DNA from: a virus
Lineage: Duplodnaviria; Heunggongvirae; Uroviricota; Caudoviricetes
Direction: 5' to 3' (one strand)
Virus record (IMG/VR): IMGVR_UViG_2529293142_000033
Length of the DNA: 54,512 bases
Positions 3,858-54,512 of this stretch are shown here, piece after piece (position 1 is the stretch's first letter; every line of letters begins with the position of its first letter). The notes beneath the pieces were generated by a model, which saw only the letters and a list, made by a program, of their open reading frames with translations, ran no database searches and was not told where the DNA came from. The position numbers and the translations under genes are program-made.

Positions 3858-4219
3858 TATGCTCCAGCCTCCGGCGCTTTTGGCATTACTGCCCAGTGAG
3901 TGATATTGAAGTTTTCAAGGTCCCCGACCTGAAATGTCCACTGCCATTCTCCGGTTTCTTTTTGTCCCCAGGTGTACCAGAGAGAACGCCAGCCAATCAG
4001 CCAGCCTTCTCCGTTAGCATCAAATAACAGAACACTTTCATTTGCTGGTGGCAGTTCAGCTGACACTGGTATTATTTTGTTTTCCAGTGCCGCACATTTA
4101 GCTTCAAGCGCGTCGAATTTACGTACTAGGTACTCAGCATTTGTTTCGTTCACTTTCAGATCTCGCGGTACACATTTCCCGCGAAGAAACCCTTCCATTT
4201 CGAAAACATTCATGCGCAT
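3857..4219 (-). CDS. hypothetical phage protein (Trp-rich C-terminal domain, DUF551-like)
   Basis: 120-aa ORF, operon context. Confidence 0.5.
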   Translation of the reverse strand: MRMNVFEMEGFLRGKCVPRDLKVNETNAEYLVRKFDALEAKCAALENKIIPVSAELPPANESVLLFDANGEGWLIGWRSLWYTWGQKETGEWQWTFQVGDLENFNITHWAVMPKAPEAGA

Positions 4220-6126: not shown

Positions 6127-6989
6127 TTTGCTGCTCCTCATCATATCGACCCTGCAAGGTCGGTTGGTTTCTCCACAAAACAGAGAAGAACACCTGCGGT
6201 GGCAGCCGCCCGGATGGATTGGGTTATGAGCCCGTCGTCCGGTGATGCTCTTCTCTGTTTTGTAAAAAGAGCGGTACCAGCCGGAAGCAAGTGTACAAAC
6301 TGGTACCGCCAAAGCAGTGGCTGTTGTGGTGACCGGTGCTGATCTCCGGCTTGCGGTTATTTCAGACTCTCACGGGCGTTTAATTGCCCCGCCGAACAGC
6401 TCTTTTCCGCAATAGCTGCAATGTCTTTCGCGCATCAGCCTGCGCATTCACCACAACGCTGAGAGCACTTAGCCAGTTACGGCACCACACTTTGTCGCGG
6501 CTCCATAAATGCCCTCATCGTTGCCCCCTGGTCTCTTCCCAGGCGTCAAACCGAATCGCCACGCTGGTTAGGCGTCTTATCAGCATCATCATTGACTTGC
6601 ACATTCCGGCTACCTGGTTTGTTTGCCCGAGCAGGGAGTGGATAGTCCCCTTTAACGTCCCCAGACCGCTAACGACGCATGTGCCATACGCCGTGATACA
6701 ACAATATGTTCGGTATTAGTTACCAAAGAGACGATTACTCTTATGGTTGAATGTAATACCCATGTTGAATATTTTTCTTGCTTACTATTTGTTTTATCTA
6801 TGTGGTGAACTGGTTTTTGTTTACACAAGAAAAAGTTTTCTTAAGTAAGTTTACATTGTTTTGTCTTGCTATTTTTTTAAATTCAAGAACAATAAATTGC
6901 CGCTATCAGTAATTATTCTTTATGAAATTTTATAAATAACTCCCTGCTTTTGAGTTCTGTACGCAGTGTTTTTAGTTGTCGAGGACATA

Positions 6990-45487: not shown

Positions 45488-46027
45488 ATGATAAACATCA
45501 AAAATTTCACGCCATACATCCCGGAAAACCCGCCCGTGGCGTGGGCGTCATATCTCATCAGCGAGGATGGTCAGGACTGGTATGAATGCCAGACGCAGTT
45601 TGCAGAGGATACATACAAAGTTGCGTACGGCAGTGACGGTATCGTGCGCAGCATTTCGACCGATGTGTCGGCACTTTTTCCGCTCAACATGAGTGTTGCT
45701 GAGGTTGAGTCGCTGCCGGACGGTGCGGATATTGACGGCAACTGGGTATTAGACGGGGAGAGTGTGGTTGCGCGGACGCTGACGGCAGCGGAGTGGCAGG
45801 CAAAGGCGGAATCACAACGAAGCGCGCTGATATCGGATGCGAAGGCGACAATCAGCCTCTGGCAGTCAGAGCTTCTGCTGGGCATCATCAGTGATGACGA
45901 CAAAGAGAGTCTGACGGAATGGCTGTCTTACATAAAGGCGCTTCAGGGGCTGGATTTAAGTGGTGTGACAGATGAGGAGGGTTACAACGCGACAGTCTGG
46001 CCGGATGAACCGGGAGCCACAGCATAA
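45488..46027 (+). CDS. tail fibre assembly protein (Tfa)
   Basis: aaggagag RBS; about 180 aa; follows fibre gene as in P2/Mu. Confidence 0.65.
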   Translation: MINIKNFTPYIPENPPVAWASYLISEDGQDWYECQTQFAEDTYKVAYGSDGIVRSISTDVSALFPLNMSVAEVESLPDGADIDGNWVLDGESVVARTLTAAEWQAKAESQRSALISDAKATISLWQSELLLGIISDDDKESLTEWLSYIKALQGLDLSGVTDEEGYNATVWPDEPGATA

Positions 46028-46080
46028 AAGCCGCTGAGAAGCGGTTTTTTTAACAAAAAAAGCGGCACATAAAGTGCCGC
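46028..46080. terminator. pair of hairpins with T-runs (bidirectional terminator)
   Basis: aagccgctgagaagcgg+T8 on plus strand, then gcggcacataaagtgccgc whose complement is followed by T-run on minus strand. Confidence 0.65.
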
Positions 46081-46526
46081 AAACGCATTGTTTGTGAGTT
46101 TTAGGCCTTATACCTTTGACGCCTTTCATTCAACAGAAAAAGAATTTCTTTGTCAATTTTATATTATATGTTGTGTTGCTTTTTGTTGTTTTTTTGATTT
46201 TTATTTTTATATTATTGCACGTTTTTGATTAAAACTTTGCTGGATGTTTGTGCGCGTTATAGAAAGCTGAAGATGAATAAATGTTTTCTTTAAAAGAAAA
46301 ACCGGCACGGTTGATGCCGGTTATATCAAGGAGTGATATAAAATGGGATGAAAGGATTGGAAAAAAGAACTTAATCAAAAGGCATCGTAGGATCAAGCGA
46401 ATATGCAAATATCGTTGTTTTTTATTGAATTACTATATTTTTGTAACGATTGATGGTCCATGGTTCGAGAGTGCATTGTCCTTCGGTGAAAGAAAAATCC
46501 GAAACATTGATCCTACCCACGTAATG

Positions 46527-46709
46527 TGGACACGGCCCTAAGCGAGATTATGGTTTTCAAATTGTTCCGGGCTGAGACCGCCACAGGCACTGTGACGACG
46601 CCAGCGATTGTAATCACACTCGATATAATTAAACACCGTTGCCCGCATTATTTCCCGGCTGCTAAAGCGTTCCCCGTGGATACATTCCACCTTCAGCGAA
46701 TGAAAGAAG
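46527..46709 (-). pseudogene. IS3-family transposase orfB, 3' fragment
   Basis: minus-strand translation ..[58 protein letters not shown] is a typical IS3-family OrfB C-terminus. Confidence 0.8.
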
Positions 46710-46907
46710 CTTTCTGCGTATTTTCATGAAAGGAGATCACTCAATAACTTCCATCGAGATCGGGTAATAACATTTGAACAGATCGCTGAATAACATCGAT
46801 GGAGATCACTTTTGACTCATTTTGTTATTCAGTGATCTCCATCAATGTTATTGGAACTTCACAGGTGTGTTGATCTGTATCTTTTGCCATTCCGGTAAAG
46901 GATACCT

Positions 46908-48449
46908 ATGCCAACAGTTCCAATTTCTATGAGAAAACTTAAAGAAATTCTTAGGCTTAAATACGGTGTTGGACTCAGCCATCGACAAATTGGTCGTAGT
47001 CTTGCAATCTCCCCTTCCGTTGTATCCAGATATGCTAATCGGGCGGCTCAACTTGGCATAAAGCAGTGGCCCTTACCTACAGGATGGGATGATACAAAAC
47101 TAAAACATGCGTTCCTTCAGACCCAGGTTAAGATGAAGAAGCACTCTCTGCCTGACTGGGCTACAGTACACCGGGAACTGCGTAATAAATGCGTGACGCT
47201 GCAGCTACTCTGGGAAGAATACTGTGAGCGTAATCCAGGCGGTTTTTACAGCTATAACCATTACTGCCGGATGTACCGTGAATGGCTCAAAACCACTTCA
47301 CCATCAATGCGTCAGGTACATAAAGCTGGCGAAAAACTTTTCGTTGATTACTGTGGACCTACCGTTGGCGTTACCGACCCTGAGACCGGAGAAATAAGAA
47401 CTGCTCAGGTCATCGTAGCTGTTCTCGGGGCATCAAGTTACACATGGGCAGAGGCCACCTGGTCTCAGCAGCTTGAAGACTGGGTGATGAGTCATGTTCG
47501 CTGCTTCCAGTGGTTGGGTGGCGTTCCTGAACTTGTTGTTCCGGACAATCTGAAAAGCGCCACATCCAGGGCATGTAAGTATGATCCTGACGTTAACCCT
47601 ACCTACCAGCAGATGCTTGAGCATTATAATGTCGCAGTTTTGCCTGCGCGGCCACGTAAACCGAAAGATAAAGCCAAAGCTGAAGTTGGCGTTCAGGTTG
47701 TTGAACGCTGGATCATGGCCCGAATCAGGCATGAGATCTTCTACAGCCTTGCATCGCTTAATCAGCGCATTCGGGAGTTGCTGGAAAGACTGAATAACAA
47801 AATAATGCAGAAGTTGGGTTATTCACGTGCAGAACTCTTCATCCAGCTTGATAAACCCGCACTGAAGCCTCTTCCTGAAGCCAGTTACAGTTACACCCTG
47901 GTGAAGAAAGTCAGAGTTCATGCCGATTACCACGTGGAAATCGACAAACATTACTACTCGGTTCCATGTTCGCTGTTAGGCCAGCAACTGGAAGCATGGA
48001 TCTCCGGAGAACTGGTAAGACTCTTCAATCAGGGGCAGGAGGTTGCTGTGCACCCGCGCAAGCGTACTTATGGCTACAGTACCCGCAACGAGCACATGCC
48101 TGAAGCTCATCGACAGCATGCCACCTGGACGCCAGAGCGTCTTCTGGAATGGGCGGGGCACATAGGCAGTGAAACTCATAGTTATGTGCTTCATATACTG
48201 AACTCTCGTCCACATCCGGAACAAAGCTATCGCTTCTGCCTTGGACTCCTGAACCTTCATAAAAAATACAGTAAAGCCAGACTTAATGCAGCATGTGCAA
48301 GAGCTCTGAAAACAAAGGTATGGCGTCTGTCAGGTATTAAATCGATCCTGGAAAAAGGTCTGGATAAACAACCTGTTCAGGATCCAAAACCAGATCTGTT
48401 ATCCACGATGGAACACGAAAACGTACGCGGCAGTGAGTATTACCACTGA
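46908..48449 (+). CDS. istA: IS21-family transposase IstA
   Basis: 513 aa with N-terminal HTH and DDE integrase-like core; followed by istB. Confidence 0.85.
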   Translation: MPTVPISMRKLKEILRLKYGVGLSHRQIGRSLAISPSVVSRYANRAAQLGIKQWPLPTGWDDTKLKHAFLQTQVKMKKHSLPDWATVHRELRNKCVTLQLLWEEYCERNPGGFYSYNHYCRMYREWLKTTSPSMRQVHKAGEKLFVDYCGPTVGVTDPETGEIRTAQVIVAVLGASSYTWAEATWSQQLEDWVMSHVRCFQWLGGVPELVVPDNLKSATSRACKYDPDVNPTYQQMLEHYNVAVLPARPRKPKDKAKAEVGVQVVERWIMARIRHEIFYSLASLNQRIRELLERLNNKIMQKLGYSRAELFIQLDKPALKPLPEASYSYTLVKKVRVHADYHVEIDKHYYSVPCSLLGQQLEAWISGELVRLFNQGQEVAVHPRKRTYGYSTRNEHMPEAHRQHATWTPERLLEWAGHIGSETHSYVLHILNSRPHPEQSYRFCLGLLNLHKKYSKARLNAACARALKTKVWRLSGIKSILEKGLDKQPVQDPKPDLLSTMEHENVRGSEYYH

Positions 48450-48460
48450 TACGGGATCCA

Positions 48461-49210
48461 ATGATGAATCATCTTTACGAACAACTGACCGCACTTAAAC
48501 TCACCGGCTTCCGTGATGCGCTTAAAAAGCAACTTGCTCAGCCGGGCACATACCAGGAGCTGGGCTTCGAAGAACGCCTGTCATTACTGACAGCAGAAGA
48601 ACTAACCTGCCGTGAAAACAGGAAGGCAGAGCGTCTGATCAAACATGCACGGTTCAGACTTAATGCTGAGTTATCAAAGCTGGATTATCGTAACAATAGA
48701 GGGCTGGACAGGGCCCTCATCCGTTCACTCAGTCAGGGAAACTGGTTAACCCTGAAACAAAATATTTTACTGACCGGGGCCACCGGCAGCGGTAAAACGT
48801 TCCTGGCATGTGCACTTGGTCATAATGCCTGCCGACAGGGATACAAGGTCTACTATTATCGCCTTAAAGCGCTGATGGAACAGTGCTATCAGGGGCATGC
48901 TGATGGAAGATACAGCAAACTTTTGACCAGGCTGAATAATAGCGATCTGCTGCTTCTGGATGACTGGGGGCTGGAACCTCTCTCATCAGAACAGCGTAGC
49001 GACCTGCTGGAAATAGTGGATCTGATGTACCAACGAGGCTCAATCATCGTAGTGAGCCAGTTGCCGGTGGAAAACTGGTACAAAATGATCGGAGACTCCA
49101 CACATGCGGATGCCATCCTAGATCGACTGGTTCATGGCAGTATCAAGATCGAACTTAAAGGAGAATCAATGCGGAAAATACAATCTCCGTTGACCGAAGG
49201 AGATCAGTGA
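48461..49210 (+). CDS. istB: IS21-family ATP-binding helper IstB
   Basis: 249 aa with Walker A LLTGATGSGKTF and Walker B LLLLDDWG. Confidence 0.85.
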   Translation: MMNHLYEQLTALKLTGFRDALKKQLAQPGTYQELGFEERLSLLTAEELTCRENRKAERLIKHARFRLNAELSKLDYRNNRGLDRALIRSLSQGNWLTLKQNILLTGATGSGKTFLACALGHNACRQGYKVYYYRLKALMEQCYQGHADGRYSKLLTRLNNSDLLLLDDWGLEPLSSEQRSDLLEIVDLMYQRGSIIVVSQLPVENWYKMIGDSTHADAILDRLVHGSIKIELKGESMRKIQSPLTEGDQ

Positions 49211-49267
49211 AGGTAATTTAAAAACGGTTCTGTGAAAGTGACACGAACCGATCTCCATCGATGTTAC

Positions 49268-49978
49268 TCACCGATCTCCTTCACGGTAATACGCACTTTC
49301 CACACAGGCATTGTCATAACAGTAGCCTTTCGCACTCATACTGCCACGCAGGTTGTGTCGCTTCAGCAGCGCCTGATAATCCCCTGAACAGTATTGACCA
49401 CCACGGTCCGTATGAACAATGACGCTTTCCGGGCGTCTTCTCCGCCACAACGCCATTTGCAGTGCATCACAGGCCAGTTGTACTGTCATTCGCGGTGACA
49501 TCGACCAGCCAATGACGGCGCGTGACCACAGGTCGATGACTACTGCGAGATACAACCAGCCCTCATCGGTACGCAAGTATGTGATGTCACCCGCCCACTT
49601 CTGGTTCGGGCCACTGGCGCTGAAGTCCTGCTCCAGCAGATTCTCCAATACGGGCAGGCCATGTGCACGGTAGCTGACCGGGCTGAACTTCCGGCTGGCT
49701 TTCGCCTGCAGCCCCTGACGACGTAGGCTGGCGGCAATGGTTTTAATATTGAACTCCGGCAGTTCGTCAGCAAGGCGGGGAGCACCGTATCGCTGCTTTG
49801 CCTCAAAGAATGCCTTATGGACAGCGGCATCGCAGGTGAGCCGAAACTGTTGGCGCAGGCTCATCTGGTGACGACGCCTGAGCCAGACATACCAGCCGCT
49901 GCGGGCAACCCGAAGTACACGACACATCACTTTGATGCTGAACTCTGCCCGATGATTTTCGATGAAGACATACTTCAT
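49268..49978 (-). pseudogene. IS3-family transposase orfB, 5' part (truncated by IS21 insertion; last codons read into IS21 end)
   Basis: ..[46 protein letters not shown] then unrelated tail; matches IS3-family OrfB. Confidence 0.8.
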
Positions 49979-50199
49979 TTCAGGCGGACATTTTCAGCGG
50001 CCAGTTCGCTTTCGCGCTCTGACGAACTCATTTGTTGCTGCTGTTTACTGCGCCAGGTATAAAGCTGAGATTCATACAGGCTGAGTTCACGGGCTGCGGC
50101 GGCCACACCGATGCGTTCAGTGAGTTTCAGGGCTTCGTTACGAAATTCAGGCGTATGTTGTTTACGGGGCTTCTTGCTGATTGATACTGGTTTTGTCAT
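49975..50199 (-). CDS. IS3-family transposase orfA
   Basis: 74-aa HTH protein overlapping orfB start, typical orfA/orfB frameshift arrangement. Confidence 0.7.
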
Positions 50200-50299
50200 G
50201 AGTCACCTCTGGTTGAGAGTTTACTCACTTAGTCCTGTGTCCACTATTGGTGGGTAAGATCATTCTGATATCAGTCCAAAGCAAATGCATCAGTGTAAT

Positions 50300-51130
50300 T
50301 CAGAGAATGATTTTGGGATATGTAATGAAGTAATGCTTAAACTTTTTTGGAGTTATTCCAAAATATTCCCTAAATTTTTTTATGAAGTATGATGGACTCG
50401 ACATTCCTACTTCCGATGATATCTGAGATATCTGGAGATTGTTTTCGATTATAAGATCCATAGCTCTATTTAATCTTATTTGTAAAGCCATTCCGCTGAT
50501 GGTCAAATTTTCTTTTGCAAGTCGTTTTCTTACTGCAGACTCAGATAGGTGAAAATGCTTAGCTATATCCCGAACGCACCATTTTCTCTTTATGTTCATT
50601 TCAATAAATGCTCTTACCTTATCACTAAAGTGACTGACAGATGATGTAAGCAACGAACGAATGATGTAATCACGATCTTTGAATTTTGAGATAAAAAGTA
50701 GCGTCTTAATCAAAATTAGTTTTTCATCATTGGTAGTTGCAAGTTTTTTGAAAAAGAGTATAAGCTCATCTGTAGGCGTAAGTGTCAGTATTTTATCTCT
50801 TGATATTGCTGATTGATTAATTACCTGATGCCCTTTAAAGTAGATTTCTGCAATTACTCGTCGGAGTGTTTGTAGTTTATCCTCGTTGAATCTTATTGCC
50901 ACATATGGTTCTTTATGTTCATCATTCTTTTTCAGGTAGGCAGAAAAACAAGTTCCTTTATCAATGAAAATGAATTGGTTAAACCCGCATGTCAGTTTTT
51001 TATTTGATAGTGAGAAATTAATAGTGCAATTATTTGTATAAAGAATGATATATTTACTGGTTCTTATGTTAACGATCTTTAACTTTCTTTGTGAATGATG
51101 TTTGATGCTATTAATCATGTGTTTAGCCAT
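50300..51130 (-). CDS. AraC-family transcriptional regulator (AT-rich, horizontally acquired)
   Basis: 276 aa; C-terminal double-HTH (VRDIAKHFHLSESAVRKRLAKENLTISGMALQIRLNRAMDL..ISQISSEVGMSSPSYFIKKFREYFGITPKKF); markedly AT-rich gene. Confidence 0.8.
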   Translation of the reverse strand: MAKHMINSIKHHSQRKLKIVNIRTSKYIILYTNNCTINFSLSNKKLTCGFNQFIFIDKGTCFSAYLKKNDEHKEPYVAIRFNEDKLQTLRRVIAEIYFKGHQVINQSAISRDKILTLTPTDELILFFKKLATTNDEKLILIKTLLFISKFKDRDYIIRSLLTSSVSHFSDKVRAFIEMNIKRKWCVRDIAKHFHLSESAVRKRLAKENLTISGMALQIRLNRAMDLIIENNLQISQISSEVGMSSPSYFIKKFREYFGITPKKFKHYFITYPKIIL

Positions 51131-52026
51131 TTTTTTGGGGTGTGGTAATTATAACTATCAACTTCCTCAATGGAATATCTTGGCATTAAAAATAGGATGT
51201 TTTTATTAAATTTTGGCCGCTGTGGTTAAAGTAAAGGATGAGTTAATATCCAGTCCATCCTTAATGGGAGTGATTAGTTCACCATCAGATAAATCGTAAG
51301 TGGTGTTTTTGGGGGCTCGTCAAGCTCAAAAATGGCCGGGAGAAAATTGGATATAACTACAGGGTAGGACTTACGAAAGTGACAGAGTTGCTATAGGAAT
51401 ATAAAAACATTCATGGTGAACTGGGGTCTGAAAAGTCACATGCCCTCATTAGAAATGGTAGCATTTTAAGTGTGGGAATGAAAAACAGAAGAGCAAAAAT
51501 CATCCATAATATGTAGAATTAGATCATGTCAACCCATATTTAGTCCTTGTTCGATAGCAAGCCTCATTGACTTCGCCGTTATCACCAGATATGGCGAGTT
51601 CTTTGTAAGTGGGAGAGCTATTTTTAGATGTCGTGCAGCAGACATTTTTGCCGAGCGCTTCATCCGGAGCGATGAACCGTAGATTTTTCTGGTTGGAGCC
51701 GATCATATGTGATGCTATGGGGATATTTTTTCAGTAGGCTAGGTGGGAATTGTACCGTTAATATTATAGGCTTCTACCCAGTAAAAAGAGGCGAGGAAAC
51801 ATGCACGACAGGTGCTACACGTCATGCATAGATTGGGATTACTCATGACTAGCCACAGCTATAGGTCGTTAAGAGATTCGCAGCACGCTGTATGCAATAA
51901 CGTGCTGCGGCTGGCTGGTGAACTTTCGATAGTGCGAGTATTGAATGATTTCCAGCCGTTACCGATTTTACGTGTTTATTATTGAACAAACCACTCGTCA
52001 GCAGACTCCCTGGTATCTTTCAGAGT

Positions 52027-52288: not shown

Positions 52289-53386
52289 TCAAGAGGTCTT
52301 GTTTCTGCTCCTTTGGAGTTCTTCAAAACGATTATGTAAAGATTTCGGATACAGTTCGGTATATACCTGCCATAGCACGTTTAATGAACGATGCCCTGTA
52401 ACCTGAGCGACTTCCTCAATACTAAAACCAGCCTCAAATAAGCGACTTGCCCCTTCCCTACGCAAATCATGGTATCGCAGATCTTTAATACCTAATTTGC
52501 TTCTTACCCTCTGAAATCCTGCGGTAACAGAAGTGCTGTTATATGGAAAAATGAATTCTGATTTTTGGGGTTGTTGCTGGACGATATCCCAGGCTTCCCC
52601 AAGCAAGGCAACTTTCATATGGTTGCCTTCCTTTTTACGTGGATCTTTCCTATCTCTTACTAGTATAGATTTTTGTTCCTGGTCGAGATCTTCCCATCGT
52701 AACCGGCATACTTCTCCAATTCGCATACAGGACCACACAGAAAATTTGAGGATATCAACGAACGGAATTTTTGAGCATTTATGAGTAGATCGTTGTTGAA
52801 GGCCTTCAATGAGCATGTCCAGTTCATCAGATGCTGGTCTACGATTACGACGGTTTGATTTACCAATCAAACCGAGTTTAAGTAGATATGGACGAGCGCT
52901 TTTCGCCGGGTTTGATGTGTAATTGATTCCGTATACAGGTTTTGCCGCATCCAGAACACTGCCAAGATAACTAACATCGTGGCTGACTGTTGCTGGGCCT
53001 GCACCAGCGTTGTTTCTTAGCCTGCAATGTTCAATTACGTCATTTTCTGTCAGTTCAGATAGTTTGATCGCGGAGATGTCGCTATCCATAAGCAGTTCCA
53101 GCACATATCTTTTAGTACGGCCTGCTTTACCTCCGGCATTTGGGTCATTTAAATATTTGTGTAGTAAGTCACGGACTGTAAGTCCGTCAACAGCATTTGA
53201 TGATGGAATGCCATATAGATCTAATTCCATCACTTTCTGTGCGCCCCATGTTTTGGCATGAGCATGTTTAGGGAATGTTTTGCTTTCCCTGTAAGTGATA
53301 ACACCTTTTTCTTTGATAATCACATTACAGCGATAGCGTGGTGTGCCATCGGATTTTAGTCGTTTCTCTATGTTATAGTACGCCAT
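52289..53386 (-). CDS. tyrosine-type site-specific integrase (dusA-associated)
   Basis: 365 aa, C-terminal catalytic region with conserved R..H..R..Y pattern (..DLRYHDLRREGASRLFEAGF..VAQVTGHRSLNVLWQVYTELYP); immediately adjacent and divergent to dusA. Confidence 0.9.
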   Translation of the reverse strand: MAYYNIEKRLKSDGTPRYRCNVIIKEKGVITYRESKTFPKHAHAKTWGAQKVMELDLYGIPSSNAVDGLTVRDLLHKYLNDPNAGGKAGRTKRYVLELLMDSDISAIKLSELTENDVIEHCRLRNNAGAGPATVSHDVSYLGSVLDAAKPVYGINYTSNPAKSARPYLLKLGLIGKSNRRNRRPASDELDMLIEGLQQRSTHKCSKIPFVDILKFSVWSCMRIGEVCRLRWEDLDQEQKSILVRDRKDPRKKEGNHMKVALLGEAWDIVQQQPQKSEFIFPYNSTSVTAGFQRVRSKLGIKDLRYHDLRREGASRLFEAGFSIEEVAQVTGHRSLNVLWQVYTELYPKSLHNRFEELQRSRNKTS

Positions 53387-53474: not shown

Positions 53475-54512
53475 ATGCACGATAATCATGAAACACAAAA
53501 AATTAATCAAACCAGCGTGATGCCGGAAAAAACTGGTGTTTACTGGAATTCTCGGTTTAGCATTGCTCCTATGCTCGACTGGACGGACAGACATTGCCGC
53601 TATTTCTTGCGTCTGCTTTCCCGCAATACGTTGCTGTATACCGAAATGGTGACCACAGGGGCGATTATTCACGGTAAAGGTGATTATCTGGCGTACAGTG
53701 AAGAAGAACATCCGGTAGCGTTGCAACTGGGCGGTAGCGATCCGGCGGCGCTGGCGCAGTGTGCAAAGCTGGCAGAAGCGCGCGGATATGATGAGATCAA
53801 CCTGAATGTCGGCTGCCCGTCTGACCGGGTGCAGAACGGCATGTTTGGTGCGTGTCTGATGGGTAATGCGCAGCTGGTTGCCGACTGTGTGAAAGCGATG
53901 CGCGATGTGGTGTCGATTCCAGTGACGGTGAAAACGCGTATTGGCATCGATGACCAGGACAGCTATGAATTTCTCTGCGATTTCATCAACACTGTTTCCG
54001 GCAAAGGCGAGTGTGAGATGTTTATCATCCACGCACGTAAAGCCTGGCTTTCGGGGTTAAGCCCGAAAGAAAACCGTGAAATCCCGCCGCTCGATTATCC
54101 GCGTGTGTATCAACTGAAGCGTGACTTTCCGCATCTGACAATGTCGATTAACGGTGGTATCAAGTCGCTGGAAGAGGCCAAAGCACACCTGCAACATATG
54201 GATGGCGTGATGGTCGGGCGCGAGGCGTATCAGAATCCGGGTATTCTGGCGGCAGTAGACCGGGAGATCTTTGGTTCCTCGGATACCGATGCCGATCCGG
54301 TGGCGGTAGTGCGCGCCATGTATCCGTACATTGAGCGTGAACTCAGCCAGGGGACGTATCTCGGCCATATTACCCGGCATATGTTGGGCTTGTTCCAGGG
54401 TATTCCTGGCGCGCGGCAGTGGCGGCGTTATTTAAGTGAAAATGCCCATAAAGCGGGTGCAGACATTAATGTGCTGGAACACGCGCTCAAACTGGTGGCG
54501 GATAAGCGTTAA
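53475..54512 (+). CDS. dusA: tRNA-dihydrouridine synthase A, full length with diverged 5' end
   Basis: 345 aa; body matches DusA; first ~34 codons differ from the displaced host fragment at 1071-1174. Confidence 0.9.

Follow-up and report, generated by a model that had tools for sequence, protein, structure and literature searches.

The locus analysed here is a pair of nested insertion sequences (ISs) in the IMG/VR record IMGVR_UViG_2529293142_000033, a stretch of 54,512 nucleotides to which we refer as the window. An intact IS21-family element, ISEc12, lies within orfB of an IS3-family element, ISEc16, at the end of a prophage integrated next to dusA in Escherichia coli. Both are named, widespread elements, which in a shallow literature search turned up only as annotations within genome papers; the names are taken from the RefSeq-type annotation of matching copies. 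The closest counterpart of the inserted element is the ISEc12 of plasmid pSTEC313, which has the same sequence, the same istA-istB gene pair, the same TG/CA ends and the same repeated end motifs, and differs only in its insertion site: it lies in a canonical IS3 just upstream of orfA, between the copies of a 7-base-pair (bp) duplication, CTCTGAC (positions 4203-4209 and 6791-6797 of locus L001), and thus represents a second, independent case of ISEc12 within an IS3-family element. The closest counterpart of the host element is the intact 1244-bp ISEc16, of which many copies are annotated. The window copy shares with it 99% identity, the terminal repeats, the orfA/orfB layout and the rve domain, but it lacks 75 bp comprising the 3' end of orfA with its AAAAG site, is interrupted by ISEc12, and shows no duplication at its flanks. 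The canonical E. coli IS3 belongs to the same family and has very similar terminal repeats (TGATCCTACCCAC...); however, its nucleotide identity to the host element is only 81-87%, against 99% for ISEc16, which rules it out as the host. The invertible fibre systems of other phages, i.e., the Mu G segment with Gin and the Cin system of P1, resemble the window only in the Mu-like baseplate and tail genes upstream; neither the window nor its IS-free relatives have a serine recombinase, inverted crossover sites or alternative fibre C-termini. The prophages and islands with dusA-specific integrases (Farrugia et al. 2015, PMC4482086) provide the described setting: there, too, the 5' end of dusA is directly preceded by a tyrosine integrase gene in the opposite orientation, and variable cargo lies beside the integrase end.

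The inserted element is identical over 2581 of 2581 bp to the RefSeq-annotated, non-pseudogene copy of ISEc12 on pSTEC313. Its two genes are consecutive (istA, 310.5 bits against NCBIfam transpos_IS21, cutoff 160; istB, 270 bits against NCBIfam IS21_help_AAA, cutoff 200, and an E-value of 2e-67 for Pfam IstB_IS21), and its ends, TGCGTATT...AATACGCA, have TG...CA termini with imperfect terminal inverted repeats. Motifs of about 23 bp containing GGAGATC are repeated within both ends (46725-46852 and 49250-49282; repeat scan, TRF period 23), and repeated motifs inside the ends are typical of the IS21 family. The left boundary, 46714/46715, reads ...GAAGCTTTC / TGCGTATTTTCATG..., and the right boundary, 49295/49296, reads ...GGTAATACGCA / CTTTCCACAC...; the CTTTC duplication falls within the 4-8 bp of this family, to which the gene pair, the ends with their internal repeats and the identity to a named element also assign the insertion. 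The ISEc12 copies in loci L015 and L016 are likewise flanked by 5-bp duplications, and the third copy, that of pSTEC313, by 7 bp. Because ISEc12 is identical to copies annotated as intact, it is probably still active. No further copy of either element occurs anywhere else in the window. The original prediction, made from the window alone, had already placed an istA-istB element of the IS21 family with a CTTTC duplication at 46715-49295, inside the orfB of an IS3-family element at 46508-50262; all of these coordinates stand (Table 1), with the host now assigned to ISEc16, a member of the IS3 family and not IS3 proper.

The host element begins with TGATCCTACCCAC at 46508 and ends with GTGGGTAAGATCA at 50262. 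Its termini, TGATCCTACCCAC and TGATCTTACCCAC, 5'-TG...CA-3', are the same as the ends of the reference. That prediction hinged on the two parts of orfB being contiguous in an intact reference copy, and in intact ISEc16 they are. When ISEc12 and one copy of CTTTC are removed, i.e., when 46508-46714 is joined to 49301-50262, the alignment to intact ISEc16 is gapless across the junction (GAAGCTTTCCACACAGG). Against NCBIfam transpos_IS3 (cutoff 160), the reconstructed OrfB reaches 320.8 bits, and it has a Pfam rve domain with an E-value of 1.4e-28. The insertion point, GAAAG on the coding strand, encodes Glu227-Ser228 within the NACVESFF motif of OrfB; this glutamate we take, from knowledge of the family, to be probably the glutamate of the DDE triad.

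The alignment that confirmed the insertion point also revealed a deletion that had been overlooked. The missing 75 bp correspond to the last 25 codons of orfA (RQLAEQAEELAILQKAATYFAKRLK), and the sequence AGGCG is found at both edges of the deletion. The deleted segment includes the AAAAG slippery site, which is present in intact ISEc16, where the coding sequence is annotated with a programmed frameshift. The programmed -1 frameshift between orfA and orfB that characterises the IS3 family is therefore missing here with its site, and the window copy is a defective member of the family, not a non-member. With the frameshift site lost, production of the OrfAB transposase from this copy had become impossible already before the insertion of ISEc12. 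Judging from what is known of the family, the remaining shell would not be able to move alone; in principle, it could be mobilised by another copy, as it keeps both terminal repeats.

Table 1. Features of the nested elements and their surroundings (positions in the window)
Feature	Position	Strand	Basis or remark
tfa, tail fibre assembly gene; last phage structural gene, intact	45482-46027	+	Pfam Caudo_TAP, E 1.2e-23
AT-rich distal part of cargo module, read as 3' region of the rns-like gene	46052-46507	-	GC 0.327
ISEc16 right end: terminal inverted repeat and last 57 codons of orfB	46508-46714	-	99% identity to intact ISEc16
Target-site duplication CTTTC, left copy	46710-46714		direct reading; single copy in empty-site alleles
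ISEc12 (IS21 family)	46715-49295	+	2581 bp, intact; 100% identical to annotated pSTEC313 copy
istA, IS21-family DDE transposase, 513 amino acids	46908-48449	+	NCBIfam transpos_IS21; Pfam rve, Mu-transpos_C_2
istB, AAA+ helper ATPase, 249 amino acids	48461-49210	+	NCBIfam IS21_help_AAA; Pfam IstB_IS21
Target-site duplication CTTTC, right copy	49296-49300		GAAAG on coding strand, codons Glu227-Ser228 of OrfB
ISEc16 left part: first 228 codons of orfB, truncated orfA (49975-50199, 74 amino acids), left terminal repeat	49296-50262	-	
Junction of 75-bp internal ISEc16 deletion	49981/49982		alignment to intact ISEc16
Rns/CsvR-family AraC-type regulator gene, 276 amino acids	50300-51130	-	Pfam HTH_18, HTH_AraC
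AT-rich region upstream of regulator gene; variable slot ends here	51131-51560		GC of 50263-51560 = 0.335
Tyrosine integrase, adjoins 5' end of dusA; marks prophage end	52289-53386	-	Pfam Phage_integrase; same order in L002 and related loci
dusA	53475-54512	+	5' end next to integrase

The order of events is revealed by related loci, 17 of which were retrieved in two look-ups, each covering 24 contigs. Thirteen loci from E. coli draft assemblies (L006-L010 and L021-L028) have the arrangement dusA-integrase-DinI-regulator-ISEc16; in these the 75-bp deletion is present, CTTTC occurs once and ISEc12 is absent. Three others (L011, L012 and L029) break inside ISEc12 and have the same right junction as the window. 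Every one of the 16 related loci that extend over this region has the deletion, together with the flank on the regulator side. As every allele with an empty site carries the deletion, the deletion predates ISEc12. The flanks of the sibling assemblies are 99.3-99.9% identical to the window, and the persistence of the empty site in such near-identical loci means that the insertion of ISEc12 is recent, as had been proposed from the exact duplication, and occurred in place. None of 5426 complete E. coli genomes contains the nested structure, which is therefore specific to a lineage. Read from these comparisons, the order is ISEc16, then the 75-bp deletion, then insertion of ISEc12 in place within a sub-lineage; the identities and boundaries of the elements, the duplication and the empty site are likewise direct observations.

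We therefore favour, with a probability of roughly 0.93, an ordinary history of IS insertion in three steps within the cargo slot of a dusA-integrated E. coli prophage. In the first step, ISEc16 would have come to lie 37 bp downstream of the regulator gene, parting this gene from its AT-rich 3' region. A deletion between the AGGCG microhomologies would then have removed the end of orfA and with it the programmed-frameshift site. Finally, an intact ISEc12 would have inserted into orfB in one sub-lineage, where a staggered 5-bp cut would have duplicated CTTTC at the Glu-Ser codons of the VESFF motif. In the IS21 family the IstA transposase performs strand transfer, and the IstB ATPase delivers the target DNA; the chemistry of this insertion would presumably have followed the same course.

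Several observations weigh against parts of this history. The independent assemblies provide only the right junction of ISEc12, because their contigs end within the element. No ISEc16-free allele of the regulator module was found among the 17 related loci, and only a paralogous module with 74% identity occurs in the complete E. coli genomes and in the plasmids searched. Furthermore, a target duplication, which in the IS3 family measures 3-4 bp, was not found at the flanks of ISEc16 (CAT on the left, TTC on the right), a point that had been overlooked before; instead of a simple insertion at exactly this point, ISEc16 may therefore have come together with the regulator, or one of its flanks may have been rearranged afterwards. 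However, only one of four distinct intact chromosomal ISEc16 sites that we sampled (L004, L005 and L030-L035) has a 3-bp duplication. Since the other three lack one, its absence in the window says little either way, and its value as proof of an adjacent deletion is weakened. Among the intact copies, a right flank starting with CGG-GGG is common to two different sites, and loci L033 and L035 have their left ISEc16 flank in common and different right flanks; this sharing of flanks hints at frequent recombination between copies or at a structured target.

An alternative explanation is that ISEc12 had inserted into ISEc16 elsewhere and that the two arrived as a unit, either through transposition driven by another ISEc16 or through homologous replacement of a resident ISEc16. 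The intact terminal repeats make mobilisation by another copy conceivable, and an exchange with plasmid DNA mediated by ISEc16 is seen in locus L008, although that assembly is possibly chimeric. However, the empty-site ISEc16 shares both its 75-bp deletion and its flanks with the occupied copy, and no other ISEc16 containing ISEc12 was found in the 5426 complete genomes or elsewhere in the window; we consider arrival as a unit very improbable. Even less credible is a nesting created by the misjoining of repeated IS copies during assembly. Short-read assemblies are often broken or misjoined at IS elements, and L008 may be an example, but the two copies of the 5-bp duplication match exactly, the host sequence continues precisely from one side of the site to the other, and the same right junction is found at the contig ends of three independent assemblies. 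A weaker possibility is that ISEc12 may land preferentially in IS3-family elements, for which the window and pSTEC313 would provide two independent cases. The top combined matches in our search (H1, H19 and H20) turned out to be neighbouring, not nested, elements; a true insertion of ISEc12 into IS3 was found only in pSTEC313, at a different site, which is too little to establish a target preference.

Neither the structural genes of the phage nor the coding sequence of the regulator are interrupted by the nested elements. Their surroundings had been described as an AT-rich region downstream of tfa, and the guanine-cytosine (GC) content is indeed 0.33 on either flank, compared with 0.59 for the tail genes. 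The IS-free relative from E. coli 2015C-4136CT1 (L002) occupies the same dusA site and is 97% identical to the window up to 46051, just past the tfa terminator, where the homology stops, and 96% identical from 51561 onwards. Between these points the relative carries a 1.5-kb segment in which an alpha/beta-hydrolase gene is encoded on the opposite strand, whereas the window has 5.5 kb, consisting of the nested elements between two stretches of 33% GC (46052-46507 and 50263-51560). The region between tfa and the DinI-integrase-dusA end is thus a variable cargo (moron) slot. For the left of these stretches, beyond 46051, we found no match in the complete E. coli genomes. The segment 46049-46326 is 73.5% identical to plasmid DNA linked to a paralogous regulator (L017 3109-3377), and a terminator scan marked 46322-46300 and 46080-46062, both on the minus strand, as hairpins resembling terminators. 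Both flanks of ISEc16 are about 74% identical to, and collinear with, segments that are separated by a few hundred bp on a plasmid from the strain that harbors the IS-free relative, 2015C-4136CT1. As both match one plasmid rns-like module, the most plausible assignment of the AT-rich DNA to the left of ISEc16 is to the 3' region of the regulator gene; to judge from these sequence matches, ISEc16 appears to have interrupted a regulator cargo module and not DNA for fibre switching. A repeat of the 5' region of dusA, which would mark a second attachment site, was not found elsewhere in the window, and deposited phages gave only short matches to the window's fibre module, covering at most 5% of the query.

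The possibility that a Gin/Cin-type invertase and an invertible fibre segment once lay downstream of tfa and were destroyed or replaced by the insertions, which the original prediction had raised, is made conceivable by the tail module. It is Mu-like (Pfam Phage_Mu_Gp48 in the window; Gp45, GP46 and Baseplate_J in related loci), and in phage Mu the gin gene adjoins the fibre genes; in addition, an ISEc16 without a target duplication leaves room for an adjacent deletion. The predicted absence of an invertase from the window was borne out. With a Hin probe validated beforehand against Pfam as Resolvase plus HTH_7, searches of 724 six-frame segments of the window by phmmer (maximum sensitivity) and by tblastn detected no serine recombinase with an E-value better than about 1, and the probe had no match in the IS-free relative L002 or in L003. 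The window contains no second copy of the fibre or tfa genes on either strand (tblastn), and no inverted repeats or repeats resembling crossover sites were found in it that bracket the fibre genes. The idea that the ISs removed an invertase, however, did not survive comparison with five IS-free relatives of the fibre/tfa module, two of which lie at dusA and at ssrA, respectively, and the other three next to a truncated ompW gene. An invertase follows tfa in none of the five; four have the alpha/beta-hydrolase gene on the opposite strand, and in the one at ssrA the prophage end is reached directly. Moreover, both IS flanks belong to the rns-like module. The loss of an invertase is thus largely refuted, and we regard it as a very unlikely history for this slot; removing this false lead is of some use in itself.

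The gene whose stop codon lies 37 bp from the end of ISEc16, within cargo of 33% GC, had also been overlooked. Residues 14-268 of the encoded regulator align with residues 9-264 of CsvR (9gfp) with an E-value of 7e-51, and the E-value against Rns (6xiu) is 9e-50; the similarity extends over the full length including the N-terminal domain and is not confined to the helix-turn-helix, which places the protein in the Rns/CsvR/CfaD subfamily. Many E. coli draft assemblies encode exactly the same protein, always at dusA, where it fills the slot that in related prophages contains the alpha/beta-hydrolase gene. A shallow literature search did not find a paper on this prophage-borne regulator. A paralogue with 64% amino acid identity is found on virulence-type plasmids, where it lies in similar IS debris that includes ISEc16. 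One tentative, and on balance doubtful, interpretation is that the ISEc16 in the window is a scar left when the phage acquired a virulence regulator from a plasmid through IS activity; if this were the case, then such a regulator would be transmissible by phage.

Locus L008 (8869-14179, compared with L017 1-2770) joins the distal end of the prophage ISEc16, including the 75-bp deletion, to the exact ISEc16 flank of the plasmid; past the junction it has a second AraC-type gene (258 amino acids), an IS4-family transposase and an ORF (open reading frame) resembling a type IV pilin. Either this junction resulted from ISEc16-mediated recombination between prophage and plasmid, or it is an assembly chimera. 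Junctions of this type suggest that ISEc16 may still mediate exchange between the prophage and plasmids. Another of the empty-site loci, L006 (GCA_002486035.1), contains the same prophage without the equivalent of window positions 18058-43478, a loss of about 25 kb from the morphogenesis to the fibre genes; its junction at about 13063-13069 corresponds to window positions 18057 and 43479, and tfa, ISEc16, the regulator and the integrase are kept. The regulator has thus been retained in a decayed prophage.

Both elements are known and so is the kind of event; nested insertion of named IS elements is routine in E. coli. In itself the insertion is of little importance, because ISEc12 interrupts only an element that was already dead. 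Nevertheless, its junction provides a clean lineage marker that distinguishes occupied from empty sites among loci that are 99.3-99.9% identical. The prophage-borne Rns-family regulator is more worth following than the nested insertion.

Two features lie outside the nested elements. A small ORF annotated as a capsid protein (46 amino acids in the relatives) is found at 51812-51985, and at 11052-11192 in L002; it is located between the cargo slot and the DinI-like gene, in the conserved prophage end, and is probably a gene fragment. On the other side of the slot, 43332-43564 consists of 4.6 tandem copies of a 51-bp unit encoding the 17-residue repeat TQEPLVINxxMLQSGYx. The repeats lie at the C-terminus of the tail protein that resembles Gp48 (42407-43597) and overlap the start of the next fibre ORF; at this position the relatives encode a leucine-rich-repeat protein of 4.3 kb or other variants.

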